From the IMG/VR virus record IMGVR_UViG_2690316028_000010: a stretch of 10,491 bases of DNA; one strand, given 5' to 3'. Position numbers and translations under genes: made by a program. Positions 1 through 10,491 of the stretch are shown piece by piece. How positions within the stretch are numbered: position 1 is the first letter of the stretch; each line of letters begins with the position of its first letter. The DNA is from a virus. Taxonomy: Duplodnaviria; Heunggongvirae; Uroviricota; Caudoviricetes. The notes below the pieces were generated by a model that saw nothing but the letters and a program-made list of their open reading frames with translations, was not told the origin of the DNA and searched no databases.

Positions 1-780
1 TTATGGCCTTGTATTTCCTTTTCTTAACTTCTTTTCGCTCTTTTTTACAAGCTTAATTAACCACTCTGGCTCATCCGACAGTTCGGAGTAATAGCAGTAT
101 TCTGGTATTGCTTTCCAAAATGTTGTTATTGCATCAGCAAATTCAACAAACTGTTCTTCTGTTACATGCAGATCATCATGAGTAGGATTGATATGTCTGC
201 CGCATATACCAGTAGGATGAGGGTAATATTCTGGATGAGTTGATGATAGGAGGCGGTGAGAATTTCCATCACCATGTTTGTACACATTTACGACTAATGC
301 GCACGCTTTGAGCTTATCGCCATAATCAGTTTCATCTATCTTGAGACCGATCCACTCGAGCAGTTTCAACAGTTGATCAAAATTTAAATCCCAAACCATT
401 GGTGTAATGATCTCTTTATCACACCAATGAGACAATTCTCTGATCGTTTTTTCTCGTAACTTTTTATCGAACTGGTGATACATACCCGCAGTTACTGCCA
501 AAAGAACAGTTTCTTGCATTTCAATAAGTGACCAGACGTAGTTTACACCCTCCTCATATGCTTGCTCATAGGCTGCCATTGGGTCGTCAAAATCAGGATT
601 GAAATGCTCAGCGGTATACTCCAGAAACTGTTTCTCTCGCTCCTCCGCCTCTTGGGTCAGATCCCCAAACTGAGACAAAAGTCTCCGTCTTGCTTCCGAA
701 ACATAAAATTCGTGAGGTTCAAGAAAATAGGGCCGATCTACTTTAGCAAGCCAAAATGTCACGAAGTTATCTGATGACAT
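1..780 (-). CDS. hypothetical protein, 259 aa (AT-rich accessory gene, family not recognised)
   Basis: Complete ORF on the complement with ATG at 780-778 and TAA at 3-1. An AAGGA Shine-Dalgarno-like motif (complement of 787-791) lies 6 nt upstream. The composition looks like a real soluble protein, and the antisense ORF 562-774 looks like a shadow. No domain recognised by eye. Confidence 0.75.
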   Translation of the reverse strand: MSSDNFVTFWLAKVDRPYFLEPHEFYVSEARRRLLSQFGDLTQEAEEREKQFLEYTAEHFNPDFDDPMAAYEQAYEEGVNYVWSLIEMQETVLLAVTAGMYHQFDKKLREKTIRELSHWCDKEIITPMVWDLNFDQLLKLLEWIGLKIDETDYGDKLKACALVVNVYKHGDGNSHRLLSSTHPEYYPHPTGICGRHINPTHDDLHVTEEQFVEFADAITTFWKAIPEYCYYSELSDEPEWLIKLVKKSEKKLRKGNTRP

Positions 781-798
781 AACTTATCCTTGATAATT

Positions 799-819
799 AT
801 TGTATGGATAGATTATCCA
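799..819 (-). promoter_or_regulatory. candidate -10 element plus adjacent 6-3-6 palindrome (possible operator) upstream of the 259-aa ORF
   Basis: On the complement strand, TACAAT (complement of 799-804) is a 5/6 match to TATAAT and would give a short leader to the ATG at 780. Immediately upstream is the palindrome TGGATA-GAT-TATCCA (805-819). TTATCC recurs at 784-789. I found no convincing -35. Confidence 0.3.
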
Positions 820-924
820 GAAATTTGCGAACTGAGTCGGTCATTTTTTTTTGTGTGCGCGTGATGTAATAAAGGTTCAGGAATATACTGTCAGTTTACT
901 GAAAAACTGGCAACAGAGGCGGTT

Positions 925-1152
925 ATGAGCGAGAGTTACGAGTTCTCAGCAGGTTGTTTTTTGAAGCTATCAATATCTTCAGGGTATTTCACTATCAAAA
1001 TTCAGGGAGATCTCCCCGCTCGTGCAGCTAGTGCCATCTTGGCAGATGATGTCGAGCAGGTTTTATCTCAACTAGACAAATGTTTTCAGCTGAGTAATAG
1101 GCAACGAGAAGGGATCGTTAAGTATCTTATGTCGAAGGGGATGCAGCCTTGA
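925..1152 (+). CDS. hypothetical small protein, 75 aa
   Basis: ATG at 925 is preceded by AGAGG (915-919) with a 5-nt spacer. The TGA at 1150-1152 overlaps the ATG of the next ORF (TGATG), implying translational coupling. No family recognised. Confidence 0.6.
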   Translation: MSESYEFSAGCFLKLSISSGYFTIKIQGDLPARAASAILADDVEQVLSQLDKCFQLSNRQREGIVKYLMSKGMQP

Positions 1153-1610
1153 TGACTTGGATCACCCAAACAGATAACTGGACAGGGATCGCGGCGTGGG
1201 CGGGTTTTGCTTTGTCCGTATTTCAATTACTAAAATCCAGAACATCGCTAAGGCTTTATCTCGGATGTGATCAGCACGAGGACAGGATATACGTTTCGAA
1301 CATAAGCGCACACGATGTAACGTTGAGTGCAGCCGGTGTGGTAACAGCCAGTGGACGCCTTAGAATGTTATCCGACGAATATTCGGACGAGAACATGATC
1401 ACACCGATGCTGCCAAAAAGATTGAAAGCACGAGACGAAATGGTCTTGAACGTGCCATTCATAAATAAGGCTCATCACAACAAAGTGCATCATCGTGGCG
1501 GGGTTTATATCAAAACATCTGACGGCAAGATGTTCAGTGATGTTTGTTGGATCAAACGCCAATGGTGGTGGTTACTGTCTGTAATACTACGAGACACAAA
1601 GCGATACTAA
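1152..1610 (+). CDS. hypothetical membrane-anchored protein, 152 aa
   Basis: I prefer the ATG at 1152 to the TTG at 1149 used in the ORF track. AAGGGGA (1135-1141) lies about 10 nt upstream. There is an N-terminal hydrophobic helix (WTGIAAWAGFALSVFQLL) and a Trp-rich hydrophobic C-terminus (RQWWWLLSVIL). The antisense ORFs 1271-1462 and 1368-1562 look like shadows. Confidence 0.65.
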   Translation: MTWITQTDNWTGIAAWAGFALSVFQLLKSRTSLRLYLGCDQHEDRIYVSNISAHDVTLSAAGVVTASGRLRMLSDEYSDENMITPMLPKRLKARDEMVLNVPFINKAHHNKVHHRGGVYIKTSDGKMFSDVCWIKRQWWWLLSVILRDTKRY

Positions 1611-1700: not shown

Positions 1701-1919
1701 ATGTTGGATTTTAAAGCTGAGTTTGTTGGCGGCAGCCATAGCGGCGAGGTTATATCACCGATGTCCGAGGTAGAACTTAATAAACTAGGGTATAGAGTCC
1801 ATTTACGTGGTGCCCCCTCTGGCGATGAAATGCCTGTACACGTTGTTGTACCTATTGAATGGTCAGCGGATGAAGCACACAGAGCCATAATGCAGCGCTG
1901 GGGTAAACGCAGACGGTAG
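1701..1919 (+). CDS. hypothetical small protein, 72 aa
   Basis: ATG-initiated ORF with balanced composition. The G-run immediately upstream could serve as an SD-like element. The competing antisense ORF 1607-1930 is Ser/Pro/Thr-rich and looks non-coding. No family recognised. Confidence 0.45.
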   Translation: MLDFKAEFVGGSHSGEVISPMSEVELNKLGYRVHLRGAPSGDEMPVHVVVPIEWSADEAHRAIMQRWGKRRR

Positions 1920-2301
1920 ATGTCGCGCATTTCTCTTAAACTGGCTGCTGTGTTTGGTGCTAATTATCCATGCAAAGTGGCCTAAGCTACGTGGAAGAAT
2001 GATCAGTTTCGCATTATTTGGTTCAAGGAGGGCTCCCCCACAGCCTCACTCTCTGAATGCAAAACAGCCCCACAATCCCACTGTTAAAAGTCCCAGCTTG
2101 AAAATTGCACGCTTATGGTTGCCCCTCCCTCAACTCTATAGCTCGCCCGCGCCCCCGTGTGCATGTGCGTGCCCGCGCGTCAGGGGTCGCTGAGAAACCC
2201 TAAGATTTTGCTCATCCGAGACAAGCATTACCTGCACCTGTAAAACGCGAAATTACCTCTCAAACACCACACATAAACCCACTTTGCATTGAGATCTGAC
2301 A

Positions 2302-2649
2302 ATGACCTTACTGACACCTGAAAACGTGGCAGCGGCTAGGGCTGCCCGTAGCGCGAGGATTGAACACTGGAAAGCCAACGCCAGCCAGCTTAAGCAGGAC
2401 TTTGCTGACGAAGCGCACTGGCGGCGGCTCGCCTCACGCTTCGGCGTGCGTATGCCCTCGGCGTATGTTCCCGGCTCCGAGCTGCGATTGCTGCGCCGGG
2501 CGGCCAAACGCGCGGGCATCTCTGGTGCTGATATGCGCGATGCTTTTGGTGGGGGCGTTGCGCACCTGCACGAGCTTAATCCCCATTGGCCTGCCTTCGC
2601 GCTTATCGGCCTGATTCTTGAGATCGCGGCTGAAAAAGCTGCTGCCTGA
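2302..2649 (+). CDS. hypothetical Ala/Arg-rich protein, 115 aa, upstream of the capsid gene
   Basis: ATG-initiated ORF on the same strand as, and 68 nt upstream of, the capsid gene. It is helical-looking with a hydrophobic C-terminal segment (WPAFALIGLILEIAA). The SD is weak. Other ORFs overlap it in this GC-rich stretch (2360-2614 +, 2434-2679 -), so the frame choice is not certain. Confidence 0.55.
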   Translation: MTLLTPENVAAARAARSARIEHWKANASQLKQDFADEAHWRRLASRFGVRMPSAYVPGSELRLLRRAAKRAGISGADMRDAFGGGVAHLHELNPHWPAFALIGLILEIAAEKAAA

Positions 2650-2717
2650 TTCATCCCATTCTCTTTTCCCCTTTTCCATAAATCGCGCTGGCTAACGCTG
2701 GCGCGGGAGCTATTTCT

Positions 2718-3713
2718 ATGACTGACAATGTTTATACCCCTGACCAATTCCGCCCGCACTGGGGCGGTGTAGATGCTGACAACGACATTCACATTGAAGC
2801 GTATGACCGGGACGTTCAGACCCGCCTTGAGGCAAAGAGCGTGTTTCTCGCCGAGGGGCTGAGCACATACAAGCCGCTGAAAAACAGTAATCAGTATCGT
2901 GTAGACCGCCTGAGCGGAGATCTGGAGGTGAAGGGCAGAACCGCAGGGCAATCGCTGGAGCCTACCGCCGTTAAGTCGGACAAGCTGATTATCTCTGTGG
3001 ATACGCTGAGCTATATCCGCATCCCGATTGACTATCAAGACGACTGGACAGCGCCCACCTTTCGCGCAGAGCTGAGCCGCAACATGGGGACAGCCCATGC
3101 AAAGTTCTACGACGAAGCGCACACTATCCAGCTAATCAAAGCGACTGACTTTGTACCGCCGCCTACGTTGCAACCAACGTTTAACCCGCTGACGGATAAT
3201 GTTGTCTCGCTCGACCTGACAACGGGGAGCGAAGAGGATGCGGCTAACGAACTGGTTCACGCTATTAAAGCTGCTGTTAATCGATTCCTAACTGAAAAAG
3301 ATATTCCGGTGGCGGAGCTGTGCCTTCTCATCGACCCAGCTTGGTTCAGCATCCTGATGGAACATAAGAAGTTGATGAACGTCCGTTACAGCCGGGATAG
3401 TGGCAATGATTACGCATGGCGTCGCGTTGGCTATGTCGCTGGGGTGCGAGTTATTGAGCTGAACAGTTACCCGCAGGAAGCCATTACCGCGCATGAACTG
3501 GGCGCTGATTATGATGTGACCGCAGGGGAAGCGCTGACACGGGCGACGCTGTTCCGGCCTGCGTCTGTACTTGTGACAGTCGAAGCGCAGAGCGTTATCA
3601 ATCGCCAGTGGGATGATGAACGCGAAATGACAATGGTGATGGACTCATATCGCCTGTTCAATGTTGGGCTGCGCCGCCCTGACTGCGTTATAAATTTCCG
3701 ACAAGCTGCATAA
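2718..3713 (+). CDS. major capsid protein, HK97 fold, T7 gp10-like family, 331 aa
   Basis: GGGAG (2705-2709) lies 8 nt upstream of the ATG. Its length is close to T7 gp10A (345 aa as I recall). By-eye collinear similarity to gp10A as I recall it: DKLIISVDTLSYIRIPIDYQDDW..RAELSRNMGTAHAKFYDEA vs EKVITIDGLLTADVLIYDIEDAM..RSEYTSQLGESLAMAADGA; LCLLIDPAWFSIL vs VFYCDPDSYSAIL; GVRVIELNSYP vs GFEVVEVPHL; C-terminal GLRRPDCVINF vs GGLRPEAAGAVVF. Confidence 0.88.
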   Translation: MTDNVYTPDQFRPHWGGVDADNDIHIEAYDRDVQTRLEAKSVFLAEGLSTYKPLKNSNQYRVDRLSGDLEVKGRTAGQSLEPTAVKSDKLIISVDTLSYIRIPIDYQDDWTAPTFRAELSRNMGTAHAKFYDEAHTIQLIKATDFVPPPTLQPTFNPLTDNVVSLDLTTGSEEDAANELVHAIKAAVNRFLTEKDIPVAELCLLIDPAWFSILMEHKKLMNVRYSRDSGNDYAWRRVGYVAGVRVIELNSYPQEAITAHELGADYDVTAGEALTRATLFRPASVLVTVEAQSVINRQWDDEREMTMVMDSYRLFNVGLRRPDCVINFRQAA

Positions 3714-3729
3714 CAAAAGGGGCCGAGCC

Positions 3730-4161
3730 ATGAATATTGATGCTTATGCCCCGGAGCTGTTGCGCTCTTTGTTTCGGTACGATGCGAAGACTGGCCGCCT
3801 GTTCCATGCAGTAGACCGGATCGGAGCCAACAAGCGGATTTACGCTAAAGCCGGGGAACTGGCCGACACGGTAACGGACAGCGCCGGATATAGGCGCGTA
3901 TCTGTCCGCATCAATGGCAAATCTCATGCGCTATACGCCCACCGTGTCGCCTTCATCATTGCTAATGACGGTATCCCTGCCGGGATGCAAATCGACCATA
4001 TCAACGCGGTACGCGATGACAACCGCCTTATCAATCTCCGCACGGTTACGCCACAAGAGAACCAGCACAATTACCGCAAAGCCAAGGGTTATAGCCACCA
4101 TGCCTGCTCTGGCAGATGGGAGGCTTACATTCGCGTTGGTGATCCACCGCGCGATAAATAA
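3730..4161 (+). CDS. HNH homing endonuclease (HNH_3 type) with a truncated AP2-like C-terminal stub, 143 aa
   Basis: AAGGGG (3717-3722) lies 7 nt upstream of the ATG. It has the classic motif AHRVAFIIANDGIPAGMQIDHINAVRDDNRLINLRTVTPQENQHN (His-Asn-Asn metal finger). The C-terminus GYSHHACSGRWEAYIRVG resembles the first strands of the AP2 DNA-binding domain found in HNH-AP2 phage endonucleases, but the ORF stops 8 residues later. Confidence 0.9.
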   Translation: MNIDAYAPELLRSLFRYDAKTGRLFHAVDRIGANKRIYAKAGELADTVTDSAGYRRVSVRINGKSHALYAHRVAFIIANDGIPAGMQIDHINAVRDDNRLINLRTVTPQENQHNYRKAKGYSHHACSGRWEAYIRVGDPPRDK

Positions 4162-4227: not shown

Positions 4228-6711
4228 TCAGTCGTAAGCAACCCGGCGCTTACGGGCAAGGATAGCTTCCAGTGCTCTTTCAATCTCAGGAATGGACAGC
4301 TTAAGCGCATTGGCCACATCCGGTGCTGGTGACTTGTTCTTGCCATCAATATAGATATTGTTAATGACGTTAATCCCGCCGCCTGCGCCTGCTGGTGAAT
4401 GAGAGTCCCGGCCTCTGGGTAAGGTAAGGTCGCCGCGCATATAGCGCTCTAATACGGGGGGTACTTTCGGCACATCCGGCACCATCATATCAGCCAGCCG
4501 CGAGGAGGCTTTCAGCGCCAGTGATGCAGACTGACCAATGCCAATCGCCGCCCCTTCTGCGATATTAGACCCGAAGCCCATAAATACACGGCTTGGCGAG
4601 TGAATCCCCAGCTTTTCCTTGAACCAGCCGCCGACACTGTCACCCATCTCAGTGACGGTATTCTTGAGAGACTCCCACTTGTTTTTGATACCGTTCACCA
4701 GTCCATCAATCAAGTGACCACCAAACTCAGTAAACTGGCCGGGAAGGTCGATGTTAAACCACTTCATGACCCCCGCAAACGCCTTGTAGAACAGCCCCAG
4801 CGGCGACCAGTTCAGGATTAGCTTACTGACACCAAGAACCCCGCCGTTAAAGGCTGTTTTCACTTCCTCCCACCGCTGCGAGAACCATCGGCTTATCGCG
4901 CCCCAGTTGCGGTAAATCAGGTACGCGCCCCCGGCGATGATGGTTATCGCAATGCCTATGGGGTTCATTAACAGCGCCCTGCCAAACCAGAGGAAAGCCT
5001 TTGCCACCACCATTACGCCTCTGAACAGTCCACCCGCCAGCGCTTTACCCAGCATTCCGGCTCCCTTCGCCACGGTACTGAATCCGGTAGCCAGCCAGCG
5101 CAGCTTTCCGCCGTCGCTCAGGGCGGTTTTGAGCAACAGCCAGTTAGTGCGCAGCAGTACGGCGTTTTTCCACAACCCGGCGAACGGTGATACCAGCAGA
5201 TTCAGGCCGAGTTTCAGCCCGACAGTGGCGATTTTCAGCCCCAGCAGTACGCCCACGGTTTTTGCCACACCCTGAACAATGCCGGGATGTTGCGCTATCC
5301 ATTGCCCGGTGGAATGAATCAGCGGAATCAGTTGCTGCGTCATTGACACGAACGAGGGAGACAGTTGACTGCCAAGGGTAATGGACAGTTCGCGGGTGCT
5401 GACCATCAGTGCTTTGGTCGCCTCCAGCGGCGATTTCAGTCGCTCCGTGTAGGAGGAGGCCAGCAGGTCTTTATCCGCCGCCTTAAGTGCGCCAGCCCTG
5501 ATTTCGCGGTATTTGTCCATGTTGGCGAGCATCGGACGGACAAACGCCATGACCTGCATATCGGCGAACATCTCACCCAGACCGAAATTCTTTGCCAGTT
5601 CCTGTAACGCAAGGTCGCGGGAGTTATCGTCCTTGATTTTCATTGCTTTCTTGAAGCCTGCCAGTGCTTCCGGGCTTTTGGCCTCCAGATACCTGCCCAT
5701 GACGCTTATCATGCCCTCAATGGGCGAGACGCCAGCAGATTTATAAGCCATGAGTGACCCCTGAAGGTCAATCCCGATATCGGCAAACTGTTTCTGCGTG
5801 TCGCGGGCAAAAATCTTGGTGAGGAAGTTACGGAAGTTGTTACCAGCCTCGTCAGATGACCCGGCACCAATTCGGGCAATCTGTAAACTCGCTCCGATTT
5901 CCGCCATCGCTTCTTTACCTTCGGCAATACCGCGCATCATCGGGGCAAGAGATGGCATCCATTTCACCTGGTCAGGTATTTCAAAAGACCCTTGGTCGCC
6001 TGCAAAGGCCATGATGTTCTGTACTTTGGCAAACTCTTTAGCGCTGCCATCCATCGAGTTTTTCCAGACGGCGGCAACCTTCGCCCATTCCGTCCCTGTG
6101 GTGCGTGTGGCAGTAGCGGCGCGGGCTATATTGGGCATGAAGCTGCCAATTTCGGACACACTGTCGATATTGTCACTGATAAGCGAGCCTACGGCGTCCT
6201 GTAAGTCGCTCTGGTACTGGTTGTACTTGAGCGACCATCCCCGGATTTGCTGCCCCAGACTGGCGCGGGTTTTATCGTCATATTTCGCCGTGATCGACAT
6301 ATCAATCATCTTGTCGTCGAACGTAGCCGACTGCTGAATCGCCGGGGAAACGAGGCTGTAAGCGGCTTTGGCCTGCGCCCACGTCTCAATTCCCTGTCCA
6401 TAAAGCGCCATCCGGTTAGCTCTCAGGGCATCGGTTGTGGCAGACGCTGCCGACAGGCGGGACTGCTGGCGGTTTAGTTGCTCCAGCGTTCTGCCTACCC
6501 GTTGCAGGTCATTGTTCAGGCGTGAGGCCACGCCTGAACCTACCTGACCGTAACGCTGCATGGCGCGTGACAGGCTGCTTTGTTGCTCGGTCAGGCGGCG
6601 TGACGTGTCGCCGAGAGAATCAAGCGCCCGCCGTGTGCCGCTGACGGCGGAACGGAAGCTGCTCCCGACAATACCGCCAATCATCACACCAACAGAAAAA
6701 TTATTGCTCAT
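4228..6711 (-). CDS. phage tail tape measure protein, 827 aa
   Basis: GGAG (complement of 6718-6721) lies 6 nt upstream of the ATG. The N-terminal region is coiled-coil. A central region resembles the TP901-family tape-measure core (..ASLQIARIGAGSSDEAGNNFRNFLTKI..). A block of Gly/Ala/Leu-rich hydrophobic helices follows (GVLLGLKIATVGLKLGLNLL, IGIAITIIAGGAYLIY), then the conserved GIHSPSRVF motif. All plus-strand ORFs inside it are low-complexity shadows. Confidence 0.93.
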   Translation of the reverse strand: MSNNFSVGVMIGGIVGSSFRSAVSGTRRALDSLGDTSRRLTEQQSSLSRAMQRYGQVGSGVASRLNNDLQRVGRTLEQLNRQQSRLSAASATTDALRANRMALYGQGIETWAQAKAAYSLVSPAIQQSATFDDKMIDMSITAKYDDKTRASLGQQIRGWSLKYNQYQSDLQDAVGSLISDNIDSVSEIGSFMPNIARAATATRTTGTEWAKVAAVWKNSMDGSAKEFAKVQNIMAFAGDQGSFEIPDQVKWMPSLAPMMRGIAEGKEAMAEIGASLQIARIGAGSSDEAGNNFRNFLTKIFARDTQKQFADIGIDLQGSLMAYKSAGVSPIEGMISVMGRYLEAKSPEALAGFKKAMKIKDDNSRDLALQELAKNFGLGEMFADMQVMAFVRPMLANMDKYREIRAGALKAADKDLLASSYTERLKSPLEATKALMVSTRELSITLGSQLSPSFVSMTQQLIPLIHSTGQWIAQHPGIVQGVAKTVGVLLGLKIATVGLKLGLNLLVSPFAGLWKNAVLLRTNWLLLKTALSDGGKLRWLATGFSTVAKGAGMLGKALAGGLFRGVMVVAKAFLWFGRALLMNPIGIAITIIAGGAYLIYRNWGAISRWFSQRWEEVKTAFNGGVLGVSKLILNWSPLGLFYKAFAGVMKWFNIDLPGQFTEFGGHLIDGLVNGIKNKWESLKNTVTEMGDSVGGWFKEKLGIHSPSRVFMGFGSNIAEGAAIGIGQSASLALKASSRLADMMVPDVPKVPPVLERYMRGDLTLPRGRDSHSPAGAGGGINVINNIYIDGKNKSPAPDVANALKLSIPEIERALEAILARKRRVAYD

Positions 6712-6742
6712 GGTTCACTCCGGTTGAGTGGTTCGGTGGGCG

Positions 6743-7336
6743 TCATTCAGTCAGGGACAGGCCGCTGATTCCGGTAATCCCGGCAATTTCTTCGCTGACG
6801 GCTGCCAGTTCACTTTCAAGCCCGGTGCGTTCGCTGACCAGTGCCGCCACGGTCTTACGGCGCTCTGCCAGTGAGGGAAGTTTGTCATTACCCCACGTCA
6901 CGCTCTTATCCTTCTTAAGCGCTTCGGTCAGTCGGGTGGCGACCACATCCGGGAAGAAAAAGCAGAGCTTGCGCATTACCGCCATCCCGGTATCAGCCGG
7001 GGGGACGTTTCCTCCCAGCCCCACCAGACGGAACAGACCGGAAATATCGCCGTTCTCATTTTCCAGATTGCCCCAGCGTTCGGCGTTCCCTTCACCGCCG
7101 GAACCGTTGCAAAGAGCACGCTTGAATGACTGATATTCTTCCTGCCCGAATCGCTCAATATATTCAGGAATAAAGGAACAGTAATCATTAAGTGATAACG
7201 GCATATCCTGTAATGCGGTTATTTCGCCATTAATATCACCAATGCGACGAGAGAGCTTTTCTTTCTGCTCATTCAGGGAGGTAAGGTTATTTTTAACGGC
7301 GTTCAGTGCTTCAATGAGGGAAATAACAGGTTTCAT
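6743..7336 (-). CDS. hypothetical coiled-coil protein, 197 aa (between the gpO-like gene and the tape measure gene)
   Basis: GGAG (complement of 7345-7348) lies 8 nt upstream of the ATG. The start is coupled to the upstream stop by TAAAATG. Heptad-like N- and C-terminal segments (LTSLNEQKEKLSRRIGDINGEITALQ; GLESELAAVSEEIAGI) flank a Gly-rich middle. No family recognised. Confidence 0.8.
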   Translation of the reverse strand: MKPVISLIEALNAVKNNLTSLNEQKEKLSRRIGDINGEITALQDMPLSLNDYCSFIPEYIERFGQEEYQSFKRALCNGSGGEGNAERWGNLENENGDISGLFRLVGLGGNVPPADTGMAVMRKLCFFFPDVVATRLTEALKKDKSVTWGNDKLPSLAERRKTVAALVSERTGLESELAAVSEEIAGITGISGLSLTE

Positions 7337-7337
7337 T

Positions 7338-7952
7338 TTAATAACTCCAGATAAAAGGTGTAGTGAGGGTGAGCGCTTCGGAATAGGAGACGTTGCAGGC
7401 TTCGCTTACATCCTTTATTAAAAGGTGCTGCGCTGCCCTCTGGCTGTCGGCTATGCCGTCGAGCTCTGAGAAATAAACGTGTGATTCATTGTGACCAAAA
7501 CAAACCGGGTAAGCGCTTTCCATAAACTCCACCTGCTCAAGCCCCTTTACGGCTGGCGGCTGTGCGCCGAGAAAACCAATATGGCGAAGATACCAGGCAC
7601 CAGTTCCGGCCGGGTTACGCGCTTCTCCCGGCCTGTAGAAAGCGGCAGACACTTTTTTATATAGACCTGACTGAACCATATCCAGCAACCTGTTATCAGG
7701 CTTAACCAGCGCGAAAAGTCTGCCGTTTTTACTTATCAGTCCGGTGGTTTCACCATAGGCGGGACTGTTACTGGCCGGATGCCCCAGGCACAGCGGCGCA
7801 CCATAACCCGCGCGATGATAGCCGTTATAGGCTGCTGCCATGTTGTCGATATCCTCGTCGGAAAAGCTGATTTCCTGCCCCGCCATCGCGGTATGTGTTC
7901 CCGCCCGGAATATCTCAATAGTTTTCCAGTTACCAATATTGATATCTGTCAT
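7338..7952 (-). CDS. P2 gpO / Mu gpI-like prohead protease (capsid scaffolding protein N-terminal domain) homolog, 204 aa
   Basis: By-eye collinear similarity to P2 gpO as I recall it: GQEISFSDEDIDNMAAAY vs GRVISAQDIQEMAETF; YGAPLCLGH vs YGCRINLEH; LFALVKPDNRLLDMVQSGLYKKVSAAF vs LFAKITPTDDLIAMNKAAQKVYTSMEI; PPAVKGLEQVEF vs DPASLGTEYLEF. The start is coupled to the upstream gene by TAAAATG. Confidence 0.82.
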   Translation of the reverse strand: MTDINIGNWKTIEIFRAGTHTAMAGQEISFSDEDIDNMAAAYNGYHRAGYGAPLCLGHPASNSPAYGETTGLISKNGRLFALVKPDNRLLDMVQSGLYKKVSAAFYRPGEARNPAGTGAWYLRHIGFLGAQPPAVKGLEQVEFMESAYPVCFGHNESHVYFSELDGIADSQRAAQHLLIKDVSEACNVSYSEALTLTTPFIWSY

Positions 7953-7953
7953 T

Positions 7954-8481
7954 TTATATTTGTCCCTGTTTCATATCGCGGCACTCTTTGTTTTTCTTAC
8001 GCTCGGCGGCAATAATCTGATAAATCCACTGAATAGAATTGCCATATTTCCTGGCTAATTCCCGATGAGTCATCCCTTGTTTGTAATCGGAAAATATCCT
8101 GGCATTTCTGTCGAAAGAGTTTCTGGCTGCGCCATTAGGTATATAGAAATTGTTACCTTTAAAGACCCTTCTAAGGTGTTCTGTAATTTCCGGGGAAATG
8201 ATTTCGGCCTGAGCCGAAAAGCAATGTATTGTAAGCAAAGCCTGCGCTATCACACCTGTAAGCTCATGCAGAAAAGATGTTGCTTTAGGGGCGTCTTCAC
8301 ATTCTATTGGCATGTAATTCTGGCAACCACCAAGATTATCAGATATATGCAAAACAATTTTATTTGCTGCACTACTTGCCTGAAGTTGTGAATAGCCCGC
8401 ATCAGTCAGAAAATCTTCAATCGCATCCCCCATTTCCCCCAGAGTGTCAGATGTTGCGTACAATCCCTCTCTTGTAATCAT
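7954..8481 (-). CDS. Mor/C-family transcriptional activator (Mu Mor-like), 175 aa
   Basis: I prefer the ATG at 8481 (GAGGT, complement of 8488-8492, 6 nt upstream) to the GTG at 8487 in the track. The C-terminal half matches Mu Mor as I recall it: GNNFYIPNGAARNSFDRNARIFSDYKQGMTHRELARKYGNSIQWIYQIIAAERK vs GGQVYIPRGQALDSLIRDLRIWNDFNGRNVSELTTRYGVTFNTVYKAIRRMRR (HTH region). Confidence 0.85.
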   Translation of the reverse strand: MITREGLYATSDTLGEMGDAIEDFLTDAGYSQLQASSAANKIVLHISDNLGGCQNYMPIECEDAPKATSFLHELTGVIAQALLTIHCFSAQAEIISPEITEHLRRVFKGNNFYIPNGAARNSFDRNARIFSDYKQGMTHRELARKYGNSIQWIYQIIAAERKKNKECRDMKQGQI

Positions 8482-8681
8482 AATCACACCTCGGTAATGA
8501 TAAAGATGTGCGCTAAAAAGGCTTTATAAAGCTTTATGAGGCGTCTTTCTGGTGACAAATCAGCACATACACCATTAACGCTTTAAAATGGCTTACAGGC
8601 TTTTTTAGCGCGGGTTACTAATGTGGATTAAGAATATGGTTTTGGGGCGGGGATGTTTTTTAATGTACTTTAGATATGAAG

Positions 8682-8703
8682 AAGCCCCTCAGAGGAGGGG
8701 CTT
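8682..8703 (-). terminator. GC-rich hairpin downstream of the 96-aa gene (candidate terminator)
   Basis: AAGCCCCTC (8682-8690), loop AGAG, GAGGGGCTT (8695-8703): a perfect 9-bp stem beginning 17 nt after the stop at 8720. The trailing sequence on the minus strand (CTTCATATCT) is only a partial U-run, so intrinsic termination is uncertain. Confidence 0.5.
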
Positions 8704-8719
8704 GCGGGATTACGCCAGA

Positions 8720-9010
8720 TTATTGAGGTCGTCTGTCTTTCCTCAATCCATCAAGTAGCGCCATGGCATCAGTAACCAGTATGCCAGCAGCATCCGTAAC
8801 CATCGAAACATCAGAGGATGCACATGATTTATCCATACCTAATGTTGACGCAAAATCAAGTAGCTTACGAACTGCGTCAAGTCGATAGGTGGCAGAGTCG
8901 TAAATTAACTCCTGATTAGCATCAGTCTTTAAAAACATAATATCATCAGAGGCACCTTGCGAAAATGACGGCATCGCACGGAAAGTATTTTGAGTTTCAG
9001 CCTGTTTCAT
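8720..9010 (-). CDS. hypothetical protein, 96 aa
   Basis: Strong GGAGGA (complement of 9018-9023) lies 7 nt upstream of the ATG. There is a 4-nt ATGA overlap with the stop of the upstream 245-aa gene. No family confidently recognised. Confidence 0.75.
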   Translation of the reverse strand: MKQAETQNTFRAMPSFSQGASDDIMFLKTDANQELIYDSATYRLDAVRKLLDFASTLGMDKSCASSDVSMVTDAAGILVTDAMALLDGLRKDRRPQ

Positions 9011-9744
9011 TGTGCAGTCCTCCGGCTAATAGCGAATTTATTATAAACTTCATAACTGGCAGCATTCAGTCCGGGGTTGTATTTATCAGCCAGAGCACAG
9101 GCAATCATATGTTCAATAAATTTTGTTATTGCGTTAAGTTCAGTTTCGTTTGAATAACGCAATGCCACTTTGAGTAACTCGCGGCAATATTGTTTTTTAT
9201 TCCCTTCGATTTGGCCTGATTTTTTTATTCCTGCCTTTTTATCTGATTCATCCTCAACAGGCAAAGATGGGATATCCTCTTTATTGGTTAGCGTTCTTTC
9301 GCAAATAATATCTTCACCAGATTGAATTACGCGCTGCAACTCTCTGGCGCTCATACGAAGAATATCATCAAGCGTGTGGTCGTTATATGCCCCACCACTG
9401 GCAAGGAGATCCAGTGTCACTTCATCCAGCCGGGCAAGCAGGTTTAACTTCGTTTTGCCGATACTTGTTTTGGCAATTGCGGCTCGGGGGGTATTGGTTA
9501 CGCCAAATATCAGAGCAACCCGCATAGCATTATGGGCTTCACGTTTATTAATTCCCCCCACTGAAAGCGCCTTTGCAAATTCCTCATTTGTTTTTGTTGC
9601 TTCCTTAAGTGCCAGCATCTCTTTACCACGATGCACTAAAGTTTCAGTCGGGGTTGGCAAAAGGAGTACAGCATCTAAAATTTTTTCCCGAAGTACATCA
9701 ACTTGGCTTGCGATGCATGAACGGTTAGACTTGTTGATACCCAT
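9007..9744 (-). CDS. hypothetical protein, 245 aa, possible HTH-type DNA-binding or regulatory protein
   Basis: I prefer the ATG at 9744 (GAGGA, complement of 9753-9757, 8 nt upstream) to the track start at 9765. The segment FAKALSVGGINKREAHNAMRVALIF..IGKTKLNLLARL resembles HTH-like segments of phage/plasmid DNA-binding proteins, but this is only a pattern impression. It is the first gene of the leftward operon at the divergent control region. Confidence 0.8.
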   Translation of the reverse strand: MGINKSNRSCIASQVDVLREKILDAVLLLPTPTETLVHRGKEMLALKEATKTNEEFAKALSVGGINKREAHNAMRVALIFGVTNTPRAAIAKTSIGKTKLNLLARLDEVTLDLLASGGAYNDHTLDDILRMSARELQRVIQSGEDIICERTLTNKEDIPSLPVEDESDKKAGIKKSGQIEGNKKQYCRELLKVALRYSNETELNAITKFIEHMIACALADKYNPGLNAASYEVYNKFAISRRTAQ

Positions 9745-9774
9745 GATTGTTATCCTCAATAACAATGGTGGTCA

Positions 9775-9809
9775 GGCAGGATGTGATACTGAACCTATCA
9801 TGTCCTGCC
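9775..9809. promoter_or_regulatory. imperfect inverted repeat in the leader of the leftward operon
   Basis: GGCAGGATGTGATA (9775-9788) and TATCATGTCCTGCC (9796-9809) are complementary at 12 of 14 positions and separated by 7 nt. This could be an operator or a 5'-UTR RNA hairpin. Confidence 0.4.
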
Positions 9810-9831
9810 GCTTGCGGTTTTACATCTACTT

Positions 9832-9859
9832 AATGTAATGTACGTACCATTGATTTCAA
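9832..9859 (-). promoter_or_regulatory. candidate sigma70 promoter for the leftward 245-aa/96-aa operon
   Basis: On the complement strand: TTGAAA (complement of 9854-9859), a 16-nt spacer, then TACATT (complement of 9832-9837). The spacer contains the left arm of the 12-bp inverted repeat. Confidence 0.4.
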
Positions 9860-9877
9860 TCTAAACAATGGTACGTA
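9841..9877. promoter_or_regulatory. perfect 12-bp inverted repeat (operator candidate) in the divergent control region
   Basis: TACGTACCATTG (9841-9852) and CAATGGTACGTA (9866-9877) are exact reverse complements separated by 13 nt. The right arm abuts the RHH start codon and the left arm lies in the leftward promoter spacer. A third copy of the half-site, AACAATGGT, occurs at 9761-9769 (compare 9864-9872). Confidence 0.6.
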
Positions 9878-9879
9878 TC

Positions 9880-10071
9880 ATGTCAAGAGTAAAAGATAAC
9901 ACGCCTAAAAATTCCGCAGGGCGTTCCCCGACCTTCCAAATACGTATTACACCTGAACTTAGGGAACAGCTTGATAAAGAAGCTCTTAAAGATGGTGTAA
10001 GTTTGGCCAATTGGCTCAAAGGCATTGCACGAGATGAACTACGCAGGAGAGGTATTTCTCCAAAAGGGTAG
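9880..10071 (+). CDS. ribbon-helix-helix (Arc/CopG-like) DNA-binding protein, 63 aa
   Basis: FQIRITPELREQLDKEALKDGVSLANWLKGIARDEL has the canonical beta-strand/helix/helix RHH pattern. The start could be ATG 9880 or in-frame ATG 9868, and neither has a clear SD. It is divergent from the leftward operon, the typical position of a repressor. Confidence 0.82.
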   Translation: MSRVKDNTPKNSAGRSPTFQIRITPELREQLDKEALKDGVSLANWLKGIARDELRRRGISPKG

Positions 10072-10086
10072 GGCTAATCAGGTACA

Positions 10087-10110
10087 AAAAGCGAAAACGT
10101 TTTCGCTTTT
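10087..10110 (+). terminator. perfect 24-bp palindrome after the RHH gene (possible intrinsic terminator; first unit of the palindrome array)
   Basis: AAAAGCGAAAAC|GTTTTCGCTTTT begins 16 nt after the RHH stop. As RNA it would form a GCGAAA/UUUCGC stem extended by A-U pairs and ending in UUUU. Confidence 0.45.
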
Positions 10111-10476
10111 ATGGCTAAGAGAGCGGATGCACTCATTAAAGCGGACAGCGCTGTCCGCCTCCAATCAGCAAAAAAACAAGATGGTTCCTCCAAAACGCTC
10201 AACGTTGAGCGTTACGTTATTCCGACAAAAGCGCAGGCGCTTGCGCTTTTGAAAGGGATCAACACGGCTTTCAAACCGGACAACGTTGACCGCTTTAAGG
10301 AATCACTGTCGGCTGAGCAAAAACGGCAAGCGCTTGCCGTTTTAGATTCGCGGGGCGGTAAACGTTTACCGTTCTGTGTCAATTATGTTCAAAAGCGAAA
10401 GCGCTTTCGCATTTTCTCACCTAAAGCGGCAAACCTCCTCTGTCTTAGCTGGAAAAACGACATCGCTGTCGTTTTT
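10087..10476. repeat. array of nine dyad-symmetric (palindromic) elements with A-run/T-run flanks
   Basis: P1 10087-10110 (24 bp, perfect). P2 10141-10158 (18 bp, perfect). P3 10194-10213 (20 bp, perfect). P4 10227-10250 (11/12 pairs). P5 10273-10296 (10/12 pairs). P6 10320-10343 (24 bp, perfect). P7 10356-10371 (16 bp, perfect). P8 10395-10410 (16 bp, perfect, plus flanks). P9 10453-10476 (10-bp arms, 4-nt centre). All read directly from the sequence. Confidence 0.9.
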
Positions 10477-10491
10477 AATCCGAGGTTCTAA
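10111..10491 (+). CDS. questionable ORF, 126 aa, overlapping the palindrome array
   Basis: ATG-to-TAA ORF with no SD; the 12 nt upstream are the right arm of palindrome P1. A second plus-strand frame (10025-10252) is open over the same DNA, consistent with stop-poor composition rather than coding. Eight of the nine palindromes lie inside it, in inconsistent codon phase. Confidence 0.3.
   Translation: MAKRADALIKADSAVRLQSAKKQDGSSKTLNVERYVIPTKAQALALLKGINTAFKPDNVDRFKESLSAEQKRQALAVLDSRGGKRLPFCVNYVQKRKRFRIFSPKAANLLCLSWKNDIAVVFNPRF

Follow-up and report, generated by a model that had tools for sequence, protein, structure and literature searches.

Superinfection-exclusion (Sie) proteins such as lactococcal Sie2009, P22 SieA and HK97 gp15 are small, come from prophages or islands, have a single N-terminal membrane helix and are encoded near the attachment site. 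The defence hotspots of P2 prophages and P4 satellites, reportedly described by Rousset and colleagues in 2022, and the accessory regions of PICIs have a fixed position in a conserved backbone and interchangeable cargo that includes known defence genes. PD-T7-4, which is said to come from the 2022 work of Vassallo and colleagues, is the same system as RAZR. RAZR is an experimentally proven abortive anti-phage RNase of the HEPN type (PMC13017515). Here we analyse a 10,491-nucleotide stretch of viral DNA, IMG/VR record IMGVR_UViG_2690316028_000010 (hereafter the window, meaning the whole stretch), in which the first 1,610 nucleotides hold three open reading frames, ORF1, ORF2 and ORF3. We tentatively favour a reading in which this block comprises two accessory modules, independent of each other, in the cargo slot on the tRNA side of a satellite-like island, with anti-phage roles that we infer: ORF1 would probably be an abortive HEPN-like effector or sensor, and the ORF2–ORF3 pair probably a membrane-level exclusion or abortive module.

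Two modules in a variable slot

Hidden Markov models of ORF1, ORF2 and ORF3 were scanned over all retrieved loci. The full trio was found in Escherichia, Raoultella, Klebsiella, Citrobacter and one IMG/VR contig. Serratia carries ORF2–ORF3 without ORF1, and E2348/69, Kosakonia and Ewingella carry ORF3, at 92–97% identity, with neither ORF1 nor ORF2. Of 26 viral contigs with an ORF1 homologue, 24 have no ORF2 or ORF3 nearby, and these two are likewise missing beside ORF1 in all the distant taxa examined (Paraburkholderia, Moellerella and Undibacterium). Because ORF1, the ORF2–ORF3 pair and ORF3 each occur without the rest, we conclude that the block consists of two independent accessory modules: ORF1 alone, and an ORF2–ORF3 pair of which ORF3 is the constant member. 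A preliminary description of this DNA had treated the three genes as one unit, a view that these distributions contradict.

The three reading frames and their starts, as called earlier, were confirmed, together with the 1-nt stop/start overlap of ORF2 and ORF3 (TGATG at 1150–1154). We compared them with the Raoultella and Klebsiella orthologues for non-synonymous (pN) and synonymous (pS) change. In frame, pN/pS was 0.15/0.78 for ORF1, 0.27/0.79 for ORF2 and 0.14/0.75 for ORF3. In the shifted frames, tested for ORF2 and ORF3, pN equalled or exceeded pS and the bias against non-synonymous change was gone. Since pN lies far below pS in the annotated frame, the substitution pattern marks all three as genuine genes under purifying selection.

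In intact islands some 430 bp separate tRNA-Gly (glyU) from the start of the block, which occupies the edge of an ~13-kb integrative island and is followed in order by a resolvase, a DEAD/DEAH helicase, about nine small genes, a major-head-protein homologue, an HNH endonuclease, an EndoVII-like gene and a tyrosine integrase. The island of E. coli LR536431 spans 22637–33175 of its locus, and the backbone is also present in the E2348/69 and strain S1 loci. Exact copies of the ORF1 and ORF3 proteins occur in ~1,000 assembly blocks, with a constant layout in all places shown. In Klebsiella, Serratia and Raoultella, the modules lie 0.4–0.9 kb from tRNA-Gly(CCC) or tRNA-Thr, beside islands with other backbones. 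The capsid homologue belongs to phrog_267 or, in the Klebsiella and Raoultella islands, to Phage_cap_E. Because the backbone encodes this homologue, the HNH endonuclease and an EndoVII-like nuclease while portal and terminase genes are absent from it, the island looks like a capsid-gene-bearing, satellite-like element. It resembles the P2/P4 hotspots and PICI accessory regions in combining a fixed cargo position with interchangeable contents, but is itself neither P2 nor P4, differing in its resolvase, helicase, capsid homologue, two nucleases and tyrosine integrase. Comparison with P4, PICI and cf-PICI, and a literature search, matched the backbone to no named satellite family. A search for direct repeats of the attachment site between the tRNA and the integrase found none, and an IS1 lies at the far end. 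A 115-aa ORF between tRNA-Gly and ORF1 was considered as an integrase remnant and rejected for want of similarity.

The slot between the tRNA and the resolvase gene is variable. Its right border is a conserved segment of ~135 bp that is 95–96% identical in ~100 complete E. coli genomes and always lies between variable cargo and the resolvase gene. Between the tRNA and this border we found at least five different gene sets, with few islands sampled. In the window and in LR536431 the slot holds ORF1–3 and a 72-aa gene. In E2348/69 it holds a 182-aa gene with the motif RNITVH, ORF3 and a 253-aa membrane protein; in strain S1, genes of 177, 146 and 271 aa, two of them with Rx4-6H motifs; in CFSAN061761, a 304-aa gene; and in strain 5735, an integrase, PD-T7-4/RAZR (2.4e-102) and four hypothetical genes. 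Because PD-T7-4/RAZR is present in strain 5735, the slot at least sometimes holds defence genes. Homologous elements do carry different cargo here, and the earlier view stands that the block is accessory cargo in a variable site of a mobile element.

HEPN-type motifs recur in the alternative cargo. The RNITVH protein of 182 aa is encoded in both E2348/69 (11371–11919 of the locus) and Kosakonia (9368–9916), and Kosakonia cargo also includes a 336-aa protein with RNNVFH (11368–12378 of the locus). In strain S1 the motifs are RSNIIAH in the 177-aa protein (5061–5594 of the locus) and RNTIGH in the 271-aa protein (6049–6864, minus strand), which has a weak HepT-like match. These proteins had no PADLOC match where tested. 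The border segment itself might act as a res site or as a promoter; Rfam returned no match for it, and neither strand showed a folding signal.

ORF1, ORF2 and ORF3 as candidate defence proteins

ORF1 belongs to a large family. Its only library match, in searches of Pfam, PHROGs, NCBIfam and PADLOC, was PHROG 19541, a family without known function. An exhaustive profile search recovered at least 1,274 representative clusters at 50% identity; among the best 150 of these, nearly all members are stand-alone proteins of 130–340 aa, mostly 225–265. The family spans Gamma- and Betaproteobacteria and occurs in prophages, plasmids and satellites, including prophage contigs and 124 plasmids. It was found in none of 50,697 isolated phage genomes, and neither ORF1 nor ORF3 was found in GenBank phage genomes. 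In 49 diverse members, H169, G172, F221, W222 and P226 are invariant and V164, N165, K168 and G170 nearly so, giving the motif V-N-x-x-K-H-G-x-G. We found neither CxxC pairs nor a DNA-binding domain in the ORF1 sequence.

ORF1 resembles RAZR in several respects. Both are single-gene accessory proteins of ~210–260 aa on mobile elements, RAZR occupies the same slot in strain 5735, and a RAZR-like gene lies directly upstream of the ORF3 homologue in Ewingella. At the level of the family consensus, ORF1 also shares the local pattern C-R-[IL]-V-x-N-x3-H: the spacing of the consensus C-R-L-V-V-N-V-Y-K-H equals that of C-R146-IVGNQAV-H154 in RAZR. ORF1 differs from RAZR in having no N-terminal Cys4 zinc ribbon, no DUF4145 match in Pfam and no PD-T7-4 match in PADLOC. 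The structure model of ORF1 can also be set against HepT toxins of HEPN-MNT systems, such as SO_3166 (5yep) and 7ae2. ORF1 is twice as long as these, is 7–8% identical to them and has no adjacent MNT nucleotidyltransferase gene. By analogy with single-gene HEPN defences such as RAZR and HepS, ORF1 may be a self-sufficient effector or sensor of the abortive type, triggered by infection, that binds or cleaves RNA.

Relatives of ORF1 sit in known defence hotspots, in agreement with the prophage hotspot setting that had been proposed. In a P2-like Paraburkholderia prophage the replication/Ogr genes stand on one side of the homologue and the portal gene on the other, and a complete Pycsar system (PycC 4e-79 and PycTM) is two genes away. 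In Moellerella it comes after the tail-fibre gene, at the end of a lambdoid prophage, and in an Undibacterium conjugative element (a plasmid or an integrative and conjugative element) it adjoins a Gabija-like pair made up of an OLD-like ATPase and a UvrD helicase. A census of 129 genes within 4.5 kb of ORF1 homologues on 18 viral contigs included AbiP2 (2e-173), PD-T4-3 (7e-138), PD-T7-5 (4e-102), PD-T7-1 (2e-51) and RES toxins.

ORF2 and ORF3 keep their stop/start overlap in Escherichia, Raoultella, Klebsiella, Citrobacter and Serratia, as TGATG in the window and ATGA in the other genera, both forms consistent with coupled translation. Across these five genera ORF2 is always 75 aa, at 37–52% identity, and no relatives of it were detected outside the context of ORF3. 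ORF3 recurs across satellite-like islands in six genera, and a scan of species-representative genomes yielded only three loci. Where ORF2 is missing, ORF3 lies directly behind a HEPN-type gene: the 182-aa RNITVH protein in E2348/69 and Kosakonia, and a gene 67% identical to RAZR in Ewingella.

The uncharged N-terminal helix of ORF3 (residues ~9–27) and its Trp-rich C-terminal helix, both noted in the preliminary description, were confirmed, and the structure model predicts a helix, a beta-sandwich and a second helix. Since positive charges follow the N-terminal helix, the bulk of the protein probably faces the cytoplasm. On this model, ORF2 would be a small cytosolic protein translationally coupled to ORF3, and ORF3 an inner-membrane-tethered Ig-like protein that may work at the membrane, excluding a competing phage or aborting its infection. 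Like the Sie proteins, ORF3 is small, has a single N-terminal helix and is encoded by an island near the attachment site. It differs from them in its charge distribution, which suggests a cytoplasmic and not a periplasmic domain, and in its partner ORF2, which has no counterpart among them; we found no sequence or profile similarity, and no homology of ORF3 to known Sie proteins in PHROGs or PADLOC.

Two loci show further genes near ORF3. The protein of 230–253 aa beside ORF3 in the E2348/69 island (12671–13432 of the locus, minus strand) begins with a strongly hydrophobic N-terminal helix (hydropathy 1.92) and continues into a beta-rich region; in this it resembles ORF3 in architecture. It gave no family match. 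In Kosakonia, a small gene pair at 7254–7805 of the locus, a few kb upstream of the 182-aa HEPN-type gene and ORF3, looks from its translations like a ribbon-helix-helix antitoxin and a RelE/ParE-like toxin.

Layout and composition of the window

The window is a mosaic. Positions 1–2231 and 2229–4141 each match E. coli LR536431 at 100% identity, and in that sequence the two stretches lie 5.9 kb apart. The cargo block had been described as abutting phage structural genes; it adjoins the capsid gene here because of this 5.9-kb internal deletion, which joins the two stretches. At a second junction the window passes, after 4141, into an unrelated Mor-type prophage fragment, and the HNH endonuclease is consequently cut at 4141, to 143 aa instead of 175. 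The arrangement of the whole window is present in no complete E. coli genome.

Table 1. Features of the window, with positions on the strand as given.
Feature	Position	Strand	Description
ORF1	1–780	-	259 aa; PHROG 19541; stand-alone accessory gene, predicted to be all-helical with a HEPN-like core
Divergent intergenic region	781–924	.	36% GC; Shine-Dalgarno sites of ORF1 and ORF2, inverted repeat 805–819, T-tract 844–852
ORF2	925–1152	+	75 aa; small, non-hydrophobic, isoelectric point (pI) 6.1; translationally coupled to ORF3
ORF3	1152–1610	+	152 aa; pI 9.5; N-terminal uncharged helix, Ig-like beta-sandwich, Trp-rich C-terminal amphipathic helix
72-aa ORF	1701–1919	+	Accompanies ORF3 in E. coli and Kosakonia
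Conserved segment, ~135 bp	2091–2224	.	Right border of the variable slot; just upstream of the resolvase gene in intact islands
Deletion junction	2229–2231	.	3-nt overlap; 5.9 kb of island backbone gone (resolvase, DEAD/DEAH helicase, eight or nine small genes)
Remaining island backbone	2302–4161	+	115-aa gene (phrog_21723), 331-aa major head protein homologue (phrog_267), truncated HNH endonuclease
Tape measure	4228–6711	-	Mor-type prophage fragment
Protease-like gene	7338–7952	-	Mor-type prophage fragment
Mor	7954–8487	-	Mor-type prophage fragment
YlcI/YnfO-like gene	9868–10071		Mor-type prophage fragment

The GC content of the block had been put at about 28%, a value that holds for its lowest single 60-nt line only; positions 1–1610 have 42.1% (ORF1 40.6%, intergenic region 36.1%, ORF2 43.9%, ORF3 45.5%). 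The block is indeed AT-rich relative to the capsid gene (53.6%) and the tape-measure gene (55.6%), by a smaller gap than first stated. The regulatory right end of the window, 7954–10491, is equally AT-rich at 42–43%.

Between ORF1 and ORF2, the inverted repeat TGGATA-GAT-TATCCA (6+6) is present as described, but the operator role given to it was not borne out: it is one of eight comparable repeats in 300 bp, and the corresponding intergenic regions of the Raoultella and Klebsiella orthologues do not contain it. We found a single promoter-like site, against an expectation of 4.2. We dropped a LexA-box reading of a conserved TACTGT on inspection, as the spacing was wrong. The T-tract at 844–852 has 9 T in the window and LR536431, and 11 or 12 T in E. 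coli islands that are otherwise at least 99.7% identical; the variation could come from an expression switch by slipped-strand mispairing or from an assembly error in the homopolymer. A G-tract at 1691–1699, immediately 5′ of the ATG of the 72-aa ORF, counts 9 G in most of the E. coli copies; two assemblies have 8, and Kosakonia has 6. No family match was found for the product of this ORF.

Alternative explanations and significance

Several results weigh against anti-phage roles for these genes. All three proteins gave zero matches in Pfam, NCBIfam and PADLOC, and no defence, toxin or exclusion family matched in those libraries or in PHROGs; alignment profiles of ORF1, ORF2 and ORF3 against PDB sequences found nothing, nor did a literature search on the protein accessions. 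The Rx4-6H catalytic motif is not conserved in the 49 ORF1-family members. In 33 of the 49, an Arg precedes the His by eight residues (R-x7-H, the RAZR spacing), and window ORF1 has Ala161 at this position; the equivalent change in RAZR, R146A, abolishes its defence (PMC13017515). Neither ORF1 nor sets of 27 and 49 family members matched HEPN, HepT-like or DUF4145 models in Pfam, at E-values up to 1 and 5. Foldseek of the ORF1 model against PDB gave a best E-value of 0.5 and did not reproduce the HEPN resemblance, HepT included. In hhalign comparisons of the ORF1 family with RNxxxH, DUF4145 and RAZR-like sequences, the motif region aligned without reaching significance (E-value 0.06 with four RAZR-like sequences). 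Given the Foldseek result, the missing Rx4-6H, the incomplete conservation of the Arg and its replacement here, and the hhalign scores, we call ORF1 HEPN-like and do not file it as a HEPN RNase. For ORF3, the N-terminal segment of 19 uncharged residues has a Kyte-Doolittle peak of only 1.15 (19-residue window), so the transmembrane prediction is weak; the helix proposed as a membrane anchor is there, and its anchoring is less secure. The ORF3 model has only a moderate confidence score (predicted local distance difference test, 67), and its fold matches are generic. The neighbour census was uncontrolled, with no matched control set, and it also included two matches to Tad2-like anti-defence genes.

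Tad2-like genes near ORF1 homologues keep counter-defence against host systems in view, one form of an explanation in which ORF1–3 serve the parasitic life cycle of the island itself, through helper-phage assembly, lysis timing or packaging. The gene content of the island (a capsid homologue and two nucleases with neither portal nor terminase), the recurrence of ORF3 in such islands and the missing catalytic Arg of window ORF1, as a decoy or binder might show, all fit it. However, among ~107 complete E. coli genomes with the border segment only five have ORF3 and one has ORF1, so these are not core life-cycle genes; ORF1 occurs mainly on ordinary prophages and plasmids, which are not satellites, and a sister slot holds a proven defence gene. 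We regard this explanation as unlikely. Ordinary hitch-hiking cargo outside any conflict with phage, with stress or envelope functions or made up of selfish genes without host phenotype, would account for the empty family and functional searches, draws on the uncontrolled nature of the association evidence, and fits the norm at island edges, where small, AT-rich, uncharacterised genes are usual. Strong purifying selection across genera, repeated siting beside defence systems and in canonical hotspots, and the recurrence of HEPN-type proteins in the same slot speak against it, and we hold it to be distinctly unlikely.

Two further explanations concern how the genes work together. The toxin-antitoxin-like architecture noted earlier would make ORF2 a labile acidic antitoxin and ORF3 a basic membrane toxin in a type II-like pair that stabilises the island, with ORF1 as unrelated cargo. 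A pI 6.1 protein upstream of a pI 9.5 protein with overlapping stop and start, kept in five genera and carried by a mobile element, is what such a pair would look like. It is weakened because ORF3 exists without ORF2, at the high identity given above, in E2348/69, Kosakonia and Ewingella, and neither protein is similar to any toxin or antitoxin family; we consider it improbable. An insertion sequence (IS) with a DDE_Tnp_1 transposase splits ORF2 and leaves ORF3 intact in one E. coli assembly (GCA_045581885.1, ~8430–9640, corresponding to window ~1028–1031), a weak point against the pair since the IS may also silence ORF3. A single co-operating cassette, in which ORF1 regulates or partners ORF2–ORF3 through the divergent promoter and the palindrome, would explain why the trio keeps the same divergent layout in Escherichia, Raoultella, Klebsiella, Citrobacter and the IMG/VR contig. 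The many ORF1 homologues without ORF2–ORF3, the Serratia pair without ORF1, a palindrome that is neither conserved nor exceptional, and an ORF1 in which we found no DNA-binding domain leave it very doubtful.

The reading of two independent accessory modules with anti-phage roles remains the one we prefer, and ORF1–3 are reasonable candidates for phage defence on the grounds of position, association and fold. The earlier suggestion of candidate defence or exclusion cargo is kept as the best reading, carried by association and not by a family match. A bolder version of it is a long shot: that ORF1 founds an unnamed HEPN-derived family of single-gene immune proteins with a dispensable catalytic Arg and N-x2-K-H-G-x-G as its working site, that ORF3 is a shared membrane-tethered partner of ORF1 and of the RNxxxH 182-aa and RAZR types, and that the slot belongs to an undescribed Enterobacterales family of capsid-gene-bearing satellites.

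All of this is at the candidate level at present, and there are many comparable cargo genes without annotation. Should ORF1 prove to protect against phage, a widespread family would be added to the single-gene HEPN-type defences, and its many members without the canonical Arg would bear on how HEPN sites work. ORF3 comes right after two unrelated HEPN-type genes and faces the HEPN-like ORF1 across a divergent promoter, which hints at an undescribed membrane-linked step for such RNases. The tRNA-to-resolvase slot could serve as a new hotspot for discovery, as the P2 and P4 hotspots did.

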